DNA from: Octopus vulgaris
Taxonomy: Eukaryota
Direction: 5' to 3'
NCBI GenBank assembly: GCA_951406725.2
Contig: OX597823.1
Span: forward strand, 91,822,001 to 91,886,000
DNA length: 64,000 nt
The notes under the pieces are model-generated. The model ran no database searches. It saw only the letters and a program-made list of their open reading frames with translations, and was not told where the DNA came from. The position numbers were made by a program, and so were the translations under genes. Shown piece after piece: positions 1,481 to 62,100 of the stretch (position 1 is the stretch's first letter; each line of letters starts with the position of its first letter).

Positions 1481-3089
1481 TGCGGAATATAACTGCTGTC
1501 TGTTTAAGATATGAGCCGCACGTGGAAGGTTGTCTGTTGTCGCGGGTGTCACTGGCCATTCTCCGTGGCATCGTCTTTGCAACCATGTCCCACCAACCCT
1601 ACCATCTTTTTTTCCTTCTTCTTTGCTTCCTTGGTGAAGTAGCTATATTTTTTATTTCTCGACAATTTGATCTTTTATACTTTTAATGTTTTTTCTTTCT
1701 TTCGTTTCATTCTGTAGGAGGAATTACATCCGTGTTTCGTGGTCTGCTACCACAACAGCTCCTATATAGGATCCAGTTAGCTCAAGTCATCATCAGGAGG
1801 AACCACGTCCAGTTACGGCCCCTACTCCTCTACCGTTTTGACGTGCCCCCCCCTTTCGGAGGTGCCTTCAGCTCTGGTGTTGGGTGCATCTCTTCTTTTT
1901 TCTGTTCCCTGGCCTCTTCGATGTAGCGTCAGCGAGTGTCAGCCGGCGACTGACTGACTTCTCAAATTATTCCCTTTAAATACCTGCCGCTAGGCTCCAG
2001 CAGGCAGCCCCAGCAAGTTGTCACGTGACACTGTCTCACCTTAACTGACTAGTGAAGGCGCATCGTCTTAGCCCACGCATTCTCTAACCGACCGTCACCT
2101 GTCAGTCAGCGATGCTGATTCTGTGTCAGCTTGTCTCACCTAGTGATGTTATTTCCCGCCGGCATGTTATGACTTTCAAACCATATATTATTAATAAAAT
2201 GGGGTGTTTTTAATAGTGGAAAAGATGAAAAGTTCTCTTATAACATCTACCAAATACAAACTTCGAAATATGAGCATGATCTGTAAATTTGGTTATTTCT
2301 TGCTTGTCTTGAATAACTTCTCAAGCAATTGTCATAGCCCTATGTTTGTAGTTACAACCTACCACAACGTTCTATAATTTATTACATGAATCTCATGATT
2401 AATTCAAATACCAGTGTGACGTGGTATATTTTATATAACGTGTATGATATATATCTCTTTATTGCCTTAACACTCGTTAACCATTCTTAACATATGACCA
2501 TACCACAGTGGCAAAATCCATTACTCTGCATAAGCTAGATTGCTAGAATCATCTCAAAAATACTTATTTTCAAACCATTCATCATATTACATAAATTCTG
2601 TGTCCTACGGTTCTGTTGTTAATTTTCGGTCTTACGTTGCTATCACACGACATGCGACGTTACAAGGCATGTGTACTGGGCTCACTCATAGAACTACGGC
2701 CATGTAGGTGAACCACCTTCAAGGATCTTTTTGATTACATCAGGTTCCAATAATATTATCAGCCTGGCAATTATTTTGCCAATCTCCCTTTATTGAACTG
2801 CTAGGTAATTGGATATCATGACGTAAAACATGAACCGAGACACAACGCACACAAACATACACAGACATACAGAAAGCATACACCAATCTGTCGAAAGCCA
2901 ATGGACGTAACTTATATAAAACTCTCTCTCTCTCCCTCCCTGCATATATATGTATGTATATATGTGTGTGCGTGTATATATGGATGTATATGCATGTGTA
3001 TATATATATATAATAAATCAATAAATAAAACATATGCATATATACATACATATGTGTACTACCTACCTCTATATGTATATATACACGCA

Positions 3090-3490
3090 TATATGGGTAC
3101 AGGACACCAAAAAAACGTCGAACACAATGAGCAACGAAAACATAAACACAAAACCAAGGAACTGGACATTTTTCTTAAACAACAAAAAAATAGAGTACAG
3201 GACAAATAACACAAGGAAAATTCCCCTTCTTCAGTCGCCATAGTTTCATCTACTCTGCGTTTCGAAGGTGAAGGCGACACGCATCTTCGATAGAAACTTT
3301 CCTTCTCGCGAAAAGCAAATTAAATAAAATTTTAGATCTTTTTGCAGAGGGGTAAAAATGGTAACAAGAACAGGACAGTAACGACAGTACAAAATATAAA
3401 CAGTAAAAGACAGGACAAGGAGAATAACAAGACAAGAAAGGGCTGTTAAACCGAACGAGAAAAAGTATTACGAACGATATTTTTGAGAAA
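3090..3490 (-). mobile_element. Non-autonomous repeat family H3 with rearranged HHR-like motif
   Basis: Homologous to 14885-15100, 53760-54125 and 61795-62100. It shares gcaaattaaataaaattt with the latter two and GAAAY...GTA...CTGANGA-like motifs with all three. Flanked by microsatellites. Confidence 0.75.
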
Positions 3491-3653: not shown

Positions 3654-3741
3654 GCGGTACATATGTTTCGGGCCTTTATTAGACGGTTTTATAACAATGC
3701 ATAATTGATGTAAATGTGTGTCTATGGCCTTCTTCAGCCGC
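3654..3741 (-). ncRNA. Type I hammerhead ribozyme
   Basis: GCGG-CUGAAGA-A-GGCCAUAGAC...GUCUAAUAAAGGCC-C-GAAAC-AUAU-GUA-CCGC. Stem I GCGG/CCGC; palindromic stem III ACAUAUGU. Confidence 0.8.
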
Positions 3742-5184
3742 GTACAATTACTACTTCAAGGACATATATTACATTATAAGTTTTACGTTGGGGATGCAAA
3801 TCCTCATAGTCGCGTACGACAGAGTGGGGCACCAGCACGAAATCGAAGCGCCCATCCCGCTTATGACTCGATGTAGAATGAGGAAGTTTGGATGTTGAGC
3901 TAGAGAGGGAAGAGGTTGGGGGGGTTGAATCTTTAGTGAGTTAGGGATCACAAACGGGAGAGTAAAAGAGTAAAAGATTACAAAAGAGTAAACATTTTAA
4001 AAATATATAAAAAAGATATAAGAATATAAAAAATATATAAGAATATAAGAAATATATATAAGAATCTAAAAAAATATTTAAAAAAGTATCTAAGTATATA
4101 AATATATAAATAAATATATACAAATATATATACATAAATGCACATGGACGTGAAAAAAAACATGGTAATATAAATAAATAGAGATATAGATAAAGGAGCA
4201 AAAATTAAGGACGAAGAAAAAAAAATAATAATAAGGATAAGAAAATAAAAGACTATATAAGGGGATGAAGGAAGAAAAGTAAGGGGGTGAAGAACTAACA
4301 GAGTGGTCAGAAGATAGCGTATTCCGGTTGTTGAGGCGTACCGGTGAAATAACGGGTGTCATAAAGTAACTCTCTGGAGACCAAGTAGATTGGTCAATCT
4401 CGGTTGTCTCGTTCGTGGCTAAACTCTTTATCTACTTCCTCGTAAATTGTCTTTGTTACTAATGGTCAACATGTACATACGTACATGCATGCACATACAC
4501 ATCCACACGTATATATACATACGTACTCTCGTATTATACGTACAAATACATACTCGCACGTACATATATAAAGCCCGCCCGTCTACACCCTTATATGCGT
4601 ATATGCGCACATACATAAATATCTCAGTATACACATACATACGGAAAAGAGCGCATGTAGTTGGGTACAAGAACTGACGCGCATACGTACGTATACACAT
4701 ACACGTACATACGCACATACACACACACTCACACTCGCACACAAGGGGGAGTAAATCCCTATGCATATACACAAAAGTATGCATATATGCATATGCACAG
4801 ACATAGGTATAACAGGTAAATTCATTCCCGCACACACGCAAAACGGACTTACATATTCTAAATAAAAAATTAAGAGGCAAAGAAAAAAAAATTGTGGGGC
4901 AAAGAAAAATTGTTTAGAAGGGATAAGAACAAAAGTAAGAACAAAAATAGAAAATAAAGGAAAAATGGAAATTAAAATTGGAAAAATTGAAAAAATAAAA
5001 TAATAATAAAAAAATAATAATAATAAACAAAAATAAAAATAGGGGACATTAAATTGAGCACTAGCTAGAATGTATGGAGGTTAGGGAAATATAATGGACA
5101 AAAACCGAAGACATGAAACTAAAGAAACCTGAAGGTAAAAAAACTTGAGAGTGAAAAAAACTGAGTGTAAGAAAGAATAATAGA

Positions 5185-14792: not shown

Positions 14793-14884
14793 TGGGCGTG
14801 TGTGTGTGTGTGTAAGTATATATATATATACATACGCATACATACACATATATATTTACATACAAACATTTGTAAATACATTCA

Positions 14885-15100
14885 TATATGGGTACAGGAC
14901 CCCACGGAACGTAAACAACATAAAATAAATATACAATACGAAATACAACATGGAATACGGACTTTTTTGTGAACAACGAAAGAAACAAACGGAAAACAAG
15001 ACAAGCAACACGAAAAAATGACCCTTCATCATTTGTTGGCTGTTTTTCTACTTCGTATTTCGAGCATAATTGCAAATCATGGAATAAACATATTGGCTTC
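14885..15100 (-). mobile_element. Repeat family H3 copy
   Basis: gggtacaggac start as at 3094; GAAATacgaaGTA...ATGATGAaggg on the minus strand. Confidence 0.65.
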
Positions 15101-18039: not shown

Positions 18040-18126
18040 TAGCAAAAATATCACAAAAACTGTTACTCAGAGTTTCACGTTCCTGTTCGTCGGTCAACCT
18101 GACGAACGGAAAGGTTAAACTCTGAG
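18040..18126. ncRNA. Divergent inverted pair of minimal HHR-like motifs
   Basis: Minus: CCGACGA-ACAGGAACGU-GAAAC-UCUGA-GUA. Plus: CUGACGA-ACGGAAAGGU-UAAAC-UCUGAG. Confidence 0.6.
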
Positions 18127-18209
18127 AATAAGTCCTGGATTCGAGTTGCTCGACTAAAGGCGGTGCTCCAGCATAGCTACAGTCAAATGACTGAAACAAA
18201 TAAAAGAGT
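18127..18209 (+). mobile_element. SINE family A tail
   Basis: ctcgactaaaggcggtgctccagcat...aaatgactgaaac. Confidence 0.8.
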
Positions 18210-18217
18210 ATATATAT

Positions 18218-18417
18218 TTATTCTTTTATTTGTTTCAGTCATTTGACTGCTGCCATGCTGGAGCACCACCTTTAGTCGAAGAAATCGACAACATGACTTA
18301 TTCTATCGTGGTCTTTTGCCGAATCGCTAAGTTACAGGGACCTAATTACACGGACATCGCTTGTCAAGATTTGTTGTGTGTGTGGCGGGGGAAACACAGA
18401 CACAAACATATACACAT

Positions 18418-37170: not shown

Positions 37171-37243
37171 CGCTCAACGTTGGGATCGAACCCACAACCT
37201 CGAGATTAAGAGTCTCGTACTCTACCGACTGAGCTAGCCGGGT
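37171..37243 (-). tRNA. tRNA-Lys(CTT), probable pseudogene
   Basis: 73 nt ACCCGGCTAGCTCAGTCGGTAGAGTACGAGACTCTTAATCTCGAGGTTGTGGGTTCGATCCCAACGTTGAGCG. Two acceptor-stem mismatches and one T-stem mismatch. TTTT lies 9 nt downstream. Confidence 0.85.
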
Positions 37244-53759: not shown

Positions 53760-54125
53760 TGCTGGAACTAAGAAGACGTGTTCTTGATTGTCTCCTGTCC
53801 TGTTTGTGATACCTAATTCGACCCTCCGCAAAATCCCAAATTTTATTTAATTTGCTTTGCGGGAACAACTGTTTTATCGAAAGCGTATATTGTTGTTAAA
53901 TACTCGAAGTACGAGACTTGAAAAAACAGCCCTCAACTGATGAAAGGTCGTTCTTTATGTTGTTTGTTTTGTTTTCCATTTGTGTTTTTCGTTGTTTGAA
54001 AGAGTAGTTCATGTTCTATGTACTCGTGCTTCGTACTCTTTTGTTGTTGGGCACAGGGCGTCATGAAACGTGTACGACAAAAGAGTACGAAGAACGAGTA
54101 CATGGAACATGAACTATTCTTTCAA
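53760..54125 (+). mobile_element. Repeat family H3 copy
   Basis: ccctccgcaaaatcccaaattttatttaatttgcttt...caaCTGATGAaagg. Confidence 0.75.
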
Positions 54126-61794: not shown

Positions 61795-62100
61795 TTTGGG
61801 AACAGGACGAGGGCAAAATGAAAAACAAGAACATAGAAAACAAAAAAAAAACATGGAAAACGAACTTTTTTCGAACAACGAACGAAACAAATAGAGAAAC
61901 GAGACAGGCAGCATAAAGAACATTCCCTTCATCAGTTGTCCCCTGTTTTATTTACTCTGCGTTTCGAAAGTAGAGACAAGGCGCGACTTCATTAAAACAG
62001 TCCTTCTCGCAAAGCAAATTAAATAAAATTTGGGATTTTTGCAGAGGGTTAAAGTAATAACAAAAACAGGACAGTAAAAGAACAAAACAGTAAAAACAAA
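61795..62100 (-). mobile_element. Repeat family H3 copy
   Basis: tactctgcgtttcgaa identical to 3251-3266; aaagcaaattaaataaaattt also shared. Confidence 0.8.

Follow-up and report, generated by a model that had tools for sequence, protein, structure and literature searches.

Hammerhead ribozymes of types I, II and III are unknotted three-way junctions (block orders CGS, GSC and SCG), and non-circularly permuted hammerheads were previously known only from unassigned environmental sequences. Type SGC, made up of HRIMA-1 and its variants, cleaves in vitro at 0.007-0.19 per min, and only two type-CSG sequences have been published; the classification given in the same work (Eckert et al. 2023, PMC10085705) assumes that the CUGANGA block and its two neighbouring strands are inseparable, and it notes no insertion longer than 1-2 nt. 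Penelope-like retrotransposons (PLEs) carry minimal hammerheads of type I, with one extra nucleotide between A9 and G10.1, a vestigial palindromic stem III and a dependence on dimers (Cervera and De la Pena 2014, PMC4209133), and the metazoan non-LTR retrozymes, which are non-coding PLE-derived repeats with a ribozyme in each unit, form type I tandem arrays of 150-450 nt units (PMC7229834; bioRxiv 10.64898/2026.07.22.740005). In the pseudoknot (pistol-like) hammerhead, a pseudoknot with a stem-loop on helix I takes the place of helix II, which shows that the wiring around this helix can be altered without losing the G12/G8 chemistry (Zhan et al. 2024, PMC11300833), and hammerhead variants "containing additional helices" are mentioned in PMC13725137. 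Naiad PLEs are described, in the part of Craig et al. 2021 (PMC8557442) given to ribozymes, as elements without canonical hammerheads in which "HHR_core" or "HHR_half_core" words are flagged with no structure given, and this lack of ribozymes is used there to argue that hammerheads may merely parasitise PLEs.

We analyzed a window of 64,000 nt of the Octopus vulgaris genome, the window being the whole stretch under study. An earlier note had marked in it, at 3221..3300, a rearranged, possibly pseudoknotted hammerhead-like RNA that fits none of types I, II and III, and this description was borne out: the block order is S-G-C, and stems I, II and III cross one another. The letters of the motif were confirmed at 3300-3221 (minus), 62012-61921 (minus) and 53868-53950 (plus), but the first copy proved to be larger than had been marked, extending from 3352 to 3223 on the minus strand, and a fourth, 5′-truncated copy lies at about 15070-14870 (minus). 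Copies in the genome were sorted into five subfamilies (A-E) and two further families, F, which is distant, and G, which is old. The account that we favour, with a probability of about 0.72, is that the motif is a self-cleaving split S-G-C hammerhead, opened between A9 and G10.1, carried by a probable non-autonomous relative of Naiad elements. The predicted parts of the first copy, its host element and the other copies are as follows.

3011..3489, minus: host element (limits by eye), a 5′-truncated member of subfamily A flanked by (TA)n runs; the full PLE-like unit is non-coding and about 780 nt long
3348..3352, minus: P0, 5′ strand CCCCU, which pairs with the strand directly after A9
3306..3347, minus: Pup hairpin, which adjoins P0 and G10.1 with zero unpaired nucleotides
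3301..3305, minus: stem II strand 10.1-10.5, GAAGG, relocated to the 5′ side of the ribozyme (94% paired)
3289..3297, minus: tie helix, 5′ strand (the "stem I" of the earlier note), linking stems I and II
3279..3283, minus: stem III strand 16.5-16.1, UGCGU (92% paired)
3277..3278, minus: predicted scissile bond 17/1.1, with G17 (GUG) in this copy
3273..3277, minus: stem I strand 1.1-1.5, UCGCC (95% paired)
3264..3268, minus: stem II strand 11.5-11.1, CCUUC, with a 4-nt linker to stem I
3256..3263, minus: core G12-A13-A14 and stem III strand 15.1-15.5, ACGCA (from the alignment)
3243..3250, minus: tie helix, 3′ strand (from a flexible helix search)
3235..3239, minus: stem I strand 2.5-2.1, GGCGA (from the alignment)
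3228..3234, minus: core C3-A9, CUGAAGA, in which only N7 differs between subfamilies
3223..3227, minus: P0, 3′ strand AGGGG, directly after A9
61924..62050 (approximate), minus: second copy, subfamily B, with U16.1 changed to C and stems I and II damaged
53820..53950 (approximate), plus: third copy, subfamily C, with an intact AUA triplet, A15.1 changed to G and stem I damaged
14870..15070, minus: fourth copy, whose 5′ end lies just inside strand 11.x, a few nucleotides 3′ of the predicted cut, with C3 changed

Read from 5′ to 3′, the order is P0, Pup, 10.x, tie helix, 16.x, NUH, 1.x, a short linker, 11.x, GAA, 15.x, tie helix, 2.x, CUGANGA and P0, so that strand 10.x and one half of the tie helix stand at the 5′ end and A9 leads into P0.

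The fold was examined on a MAFFT alignment of 41 natural copies, made without structure information, whose rows were 31 cluster representatives of A-E (chosen by centrality), the three window copies and seven copies of family F. Clusters of A-E were used only where the best member passed the structure score, and two of the 33 listed representatives were left out, one being truncated and one partly deleted. The 23 pairs of the revised fold were 90.4% paired vs 74.8% after shuffling, with 183 vs 59 changes on both sides of a pair, figures that have to be read in the light of rows stemming from only about 10 lineages and of a shuffle control that ignores relatedness. Slid-register controls were only 38-44% paired. 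The number of pairs with any both-side change was less striking (19 vs 16.2 in shuffles, 35 of 500 shuffles reaching 19).

On the alignment, covariation supports five helices, i.e., P0, Pup and stems I, II and III. Stem I was 95% paired, all five of its pairs had changed on both sides, and its 1.1-2.1 pair stands directly before C3. Stem II is formed by the strand before GAA and a strand upstream of the region marked earlier; it was 94% paired, carried G10.1-C11.1 directly before G12 in 37/41 copies and had three pair types at two positions (variants GAAGG/CCUUC, GAGCA/UGCUC and GGCUG/CAGCC). Stem III was recognised by comparison with distant relatives, in which the supposed linker pairs with the strand after GAA. 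It has 5 bp, was 92% paired, kept U16.1-A15.1 in 38/41 copies and had GC (19 copies) or AU (19 copies) at 16.2-15.2, the variants being UGCGU/ACGCA, CGUAU/AUACG, CUCAU/AUGAG, GCAAU/AUUGC and AUGGU/ACCAU. The Pup hairpin was 87% paired, with GC/AU and CG/UA swaps, and P0 81% paired, the seven family-F rows being out of register in the P0 columns. P0, Pup and stem II abut without unpaired nucleotides in A-E and F2; in F1 and in one D subgroup, one or two unpaired or U-U positions are found beside this junction. The AU-rich loop of Pup (window 3313-3335) is nearly invariant across A-E without a catalytic role, and is possibly a protein-binding site.

The tie helix was not counted on the alignment because its register differs between subfamilies. 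With a flexible search it was found in 26/28 A copies vs 104/560 shuffles. Both the tie helix and Pup with P0 exceeded looser shuffles in subfamilies A-C and to some extent in F1, where the tie helix did so only weakly, and both were at shuffle level in family G (tie helix, 13/21 vs 257/420; Pup with P0, 14/21 vs 249/420). Folding of single sequences gave a modest signal or none (z from -2.7 to +1.1) and returned other structures, as is expected because the structure is pseudoknotted. A descriptor built on stems I, II and III, in which U16.1 was not forced and only its pairing with 15.1 was required, was passed by 28/30 A copies (vs 1/150 shuffles), 12/27 B copies (1/135), 29/29 C copies (4/145), 28/30 F1 copies (3/150) and 16/29 G copies (8/145). 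We hold it very likely that the secondary structure of the motif is the one given here.

The core is that of the hammerhead class, since C3 U4 G5 A6 N7 G8 A9 and G12 A13 A14 are kept and N7 is free. In 25 copies found in flanking sequence and unselected on the core, conservation was 0.84-1.0 in the core columns and 0.6 at N7, although the profile behind these columns included the core, and the helix interiors were mostly 0.5-0.8 conserved. That the core is fully canonical follows from stem III, by which NUH comes to stand immediately 5′ of the strand paired next to C3. The triplet at this upstream site was NUH (GUA, GUC, AUA, AUC or CUA) in 112/113 copies that passed the descriptor, and the only other one, GUG, is that of the window's own copy; among the 28 passing A copies G17 occurs once, and 26 have GUA. 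G17 blocks hammerhead cleavage, and owing to it the window copy at 3352-3223 is probably inactive. Because the real 5-bp stem III lies upstream, the predicted cut moves there too, to the bond before UCGCC (window 3278/3277). Site-specific self-cleavage at the upstream NUH would be likely.

The earlier note had instead placed the cut after the downstream GUA, with a long helix as stem I, GAAG/CUUC as stem II, a 2-bp stem III, a short YGAA core and an appended CUGANGA supplied from the 3′ end. Both of its long complementarities are real and are present in all three window copies, but their identities changed: what the note called "second helix" corresponds to stem I, and what it called "stem I" to the tie helix. 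Its 2-bp stem III is indeed 77% paired, vs 92% for the 5-bp stem III. GAAG/CUUC, in turn, was 65% paired, which 65/500 shuffles reach, the real partner being the upstream strand with 94%. Neither the YGAA core nor the second core could be retained; there is one canonical core, G12-A13-A14 with C3-A9, and its CUGANGA is preceded by a stem I strand. Furthermore, the triplet at the downstream position is GAU, GAC, GAA, UGA or GGA in families D, F and G, no pile-up of truncations is seen there (about 2/25, by eye), and a cut at that place needs 2.1 and C3 to be unlinked, though a fully canonical junction exists upstream. Cleavage after the downstream triplet is thus highly improbable. An interim model of our own, with a downstream-triplet cut, the long helix as stem I and A16.1 triplets in F and G, was dropped once the 5-bp stem III had been found.

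The motif shares with type SGC (PMC10085705) the S-G-C order, a stem I-II linker of about 3 nt, a helix that ties the opposite sides of stems I and II, and a pseudoknotted core; it differs in that strand 10.x is detached from A9 and placed 5′, the gap being occupied by two additional helices. In type SGC block C is uninterrupted and 10.x lies within 1-2 nt of A9, whereas here the upstream partner of 11.x is 94% paired and the strand after A9 only 78% over the alignment, mostly by G-U and with one covarying pair of four. The latter strand could nevertheless pair with 11.x in 26/28 A and 21/26 C copies, so that an ordinary contiguous SGC fold is possible in these subfamilies. The active fold might then be an ordinary type SGC in which the strand after A9, set off by one extra A, is the true 10.x, and the 5′ strand, P0 and Pup either assist folding or form an inactive state; PLE hammerheads typically have an additional nucleotide between 9 and 10.1 (PMC4209133). 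We consider this quite unlikely, since the strand after A9 is unable to pair with 11.x in F1 (0/27), in G (0/21 and 0/12) and in 8/9 B copies, and by eye the same holds for the coral Naiads and those near part 12 of the supplement to PMC8557442, among the entries covered there; the tie helix, moreover, needs the 5′ strand where it stands. Of the predicted folds, only the split form is shared by all families. A type II reading, with stem II made by the strand after A9, was rejected as weaker than the upstream partner (78% vs 94%).

Judged by the order of its strands, the arrangement is type SGC circularised and then re-opened at A9/G10.1. The cyclic order of strands is also that of type CSG (Eckert et al. 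2023), but type CSG opens between 15.x and 2.x and the window motif between A9 and G10.1. With the PLE minimal hammerheads of PMC4209133 the motif has in common the PLE context, the G10.1-C11.1 pair and an insertion between A9 and G10.1. The type I order with a vestigial palindromic stem III was, however, not found in it: stem III is 5 bp long, and what is inserted is a domain of two helices in which both ends of the RNA lie. In contrast to the pseudoknot hammerhead (PMC11300833), helix II is kept and the chain is broken at A9/G10.1. The window families resemble the non-LTR retrozymes as non-coding PLE-derived repeats with a ribozyme per unit, but they are neither of type I nor built of 150-450 nt tandem units, being mostly dispersed units of 700-840 nt with at most partial tandems. 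No report of the split A9/G10.1 arrangement or of permuted hammerheads in Naiads was found in the literature, subscription journals and Repbase notes lying outside the scope of the search; within that scope the motif, as a hammerhead-class variant tied to Naiad PLEs, would be new.

In a different repeat, 420 nt upstream of the split motif, the window also holds at 3655-3745 (minus) an independent type I hammerhead that belongs with the minimal ones of PLEs. Its stem I is 4 bp long, A9 is followed by an additional A, loop II is long at about 55 nt, and stem III is short and palindromic.

The host genome has 2.8 Gb and is rich in microsatellites. Similarity searches with the three window copies gave 3,197, 3,217 and 2,388 first-look candidates, and for family F the best matches had 94-99% identity with the query. 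A pattern with GAAA and CUGANGA as its anchors had 7,216 exact matches in the genome, vs 31 for the reversed pattern; 7,216 is a lower bound on the number of copies because decayed copies fail the exact pattern. A looser pattern had 78,325 matches vs 22,991 for its reversed control. The motif is not a chance match. No hammerhead was present among 150 of the 352 Rfam matches listed for the window, and since standard descriptors and Rfam miss the motif, copy counts in invertebrates are probably too low. In viral and metagenome scans (153 loci), 0/196 candidates passed a superseded descriptor and 5/256 passed the corrected one at its floor, which equals the shuffle rate; these scans are no proof of absence because their patterns had been built on the wrong, downstream triplet. 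Two other features of the window were noted: a long near-perfect inverted repeat at 18125-18303 (MITE-like), which draws spurious Rfam microRNA matches, and a tRNA-like Rfam match at 37171-37243 (minus; 46 bits, above the gathering score), which is possibly the head of a SINE.

In copies of A, B and C the 3′ end is constant, lying about 230-250 nt beyond C3, and a microsatellite comes after it; 5′ truncation is variable, and inverted partners and partial tandems occur. Spacings within a family were 589-1,135 nt, mostly 700-840, and the units are non-coding, 5′-truncated and roughly 600-1,100 nt long. These families share with Naiad PLEs (Craig et al. 2021, PMC8557442) the (TA)n targets, the 5′ truncation, the partial tandems, the inverted copies and a short 3′ tail, traits that are not diagnostic alone because other PLE clades have them as well. 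At the A-C 3′ end (e.g., L004, L050 and L081) a conserved, splice-donor-like AAGTAAG marks the unit boundary, and a long pyrimidine tract comes next. The possibility that the Pup/G10.1 boundary is a 3′ splice site was rejected, as CAG occurs there only in D and some A copies and no spliced joint was found in the contigs. Copies of F, A and E stand head to tail on one strand, 810-1,040 nt apart, at two loci (L162 and L158), which suggests insertion beside earlier copies or their (TA)n tails.

A Naiad is defined by an N-terminal GIY-YIG domain, a CxC linker and a C-terminal RT in one ORF. No ORF adjoins the copies of A-F, no intact Naiad ORF was found in the genome, where all top RT matches were short or broken, and in 20 regions of 9 kb around an intact 781-aa PLE and other GIY-YIG loci no motif was attached to the ORF. 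The intact element (L424-L433) is a young PLE with a 781-aa RT/GIY-YIG ORF, an overlapping upstream ORF of up to 479 aa and tandem CCAAT-like repeats after the stop, with no hammerhead seen; we take it to be Neptune-like from its C-x2-C linker. Family G has a broken RT upstream on the same strand, and it is only the RT part of the ORF layout that was inspected: the remnant, whose PF00078 match (E 1.3e-5) falls short of the curated cut-off, is located 1.1-1.6 kb upstream of a family-G motif, and in 12 of the 30 loci found with it (query locus included) the motif is downstream, on the same strand and within the 1.5-kb flank.

By eye, the 3′ end of family G is near-identical to those of Naiad_Obim and Naiad_Ovul (PMC8557442), both of which parse exactly into the split layout, and the HHR_half_core flag of Naiad_Ovul in Craig et al. 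2021 falls at this motif. With family G the window families, which are without an ORF, share architecture and, in A, B and C, the word CATCC near the 3′ end, but not alignable sequence; CATCC was not seen in one D, one E and two F1 copies that were checked. The host of the window families is probably a non-autonomous relative of Naiad PLEs.

The supplement of PMC8557442 was surveyed in part for CUGANGA, covering places 1-7 and 17-46 of 62, 1-22 of 43, 1-22 of 23 and 1-22 of 25; occurrences were parsed by eye, and words broken at line ends were missed. Among those covered, the split layout, with six helices and NUH in unrelated letters, was read in the Acropora elements Naiad_Amil, Naiad_Aacu and Naiad_Anas. 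It was also read in one Naiad entry of the hydrozoan Clytia (part 9), in two entries near part 12 (among Morbakka-2, Pomphorhynchus and Didymodactylos) and in one crustacean entry (part 19), and a Beroe entry looks like a variant of it with a short stem I. Naiad entries of Nippostrongylus (1-3), Haemonchus, Ascaris and one of Pristionchus read as type CSG; these nematode 3′ ends (supplement S5) appear by eye to hold complete type-CSG hammerheads with a tie helix. Several 3′ UTR cores (spider, ostracod and Euprymna region) fitted no layout, and for most bivalve entries no core was seen among the occurrences covered. On balance, it is probable that Naiads from cnidarians to cephalopods and crustaceans have as their native ribozyme a seventh natural hammerhead arrangement, which is opened at A9/G10.1 and which a four-way junction closes, and that nematode Naiads have its circular permutant, type CSG.

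The 5′ ends of genomic copies were then compared with the predicted cut. A first sample held 100 listed of 889 copies anchored 3′ of this cut, with 61 nt shown and boundaries called by eye: 73 read through, two had internal deletions and 25 (one pair duplicated) were 5′-truncated. All 25 start between the predicted cut and +37, nine of them at +6 to +8 and one at the cut, and there was no start in the 23 nt upstream of it. The second sample comprised 78 further copies in which an intact end of strand 11.x was required, likewise curated by eye. Thirty-three boundaries were called at -3 or later, six of which were dropped as indel artefacts, so that about 27/78 starts fall in 0 to +13, six of them at 1.1. 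Another 17 boundaries were called in -5 to -28, and about three of these look real. The main peak lies 6-8 nt inside the cut, not at it. This pattern fits a minority of templates that may end at the predicted cut, and RT stalling in the structured 3′ half could be the source of much of it.

Stalling would be the whole explanation of the truncation peaks if the structure were conserved as a signal for protein binding or reverse transcription, cleaving poorly or only with the protein of the element. The reading-through of about three quarters of the copies (73/100 listed) and the conservation of the Pup loop in A-E without a catalytic role are in line with this, and so are the weak cleavage of PLE minimal hammerheads (PMC4209133) and the findings of Frangieh et al. 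(PMC11167929) on an Anolis PLE hammerhead, which needed protein for cleavage, was not required for insertion in vitro and had no RNA-seq ends at its site. However, stalls leave the starts exactly at 1.1 unexplained, and although N7 and the helices have drifted, all the catalytic positions, A15.1-U16.1 and the NUH rule are conserved. A signal of this kind is, in our view, unlikely.

In the self-cleaving split hammerhead that we favour, P0 and Pup would stack on each other and cross the stack of stem II and the core as a four-way junction, as the geometry of the junction suggests, and this junction would sit at the surface position where PLE hammerheads have their one extra nucleotide. Acid-base cleavage by G12 and G8 after NUH would yield RNA of unit length from tandem or read-through transcripts, and a Naiad-type RT/endonuclease may insert this RNA into (TA)n. 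Because most insertions read through the site, the main template would be uncut or re-ligated (circular) RNA, with cut RNA in a minor role.

The strong covariation in this family breaks the assumption of an unsplittable CUGANGA block, and predicted ribozymes of this kind are thereby located in a retrotransposon of an animal. A testable answer is also gained to a point left by Craig et al. 2021 (PMC8557442), where Naiads have hammerhead core words but fit no descriptor. If our account is true, Naiads are not without hammerheads but would be the main natural home of the non-circularly permuted ones, with thousands of genomic copies, and a route between permutations would become visible, i.e., tandem duplication followed by re-opening. 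The A9/G10.1 junction would also give engineered ribozymes a new attachment point. At one further locus (L011, minus, about 1060-1190 from the 5′ end) a single copy was seen of a family with GAAA before CUGAUGA and helices of its own, probably a further split-SGC lineage.
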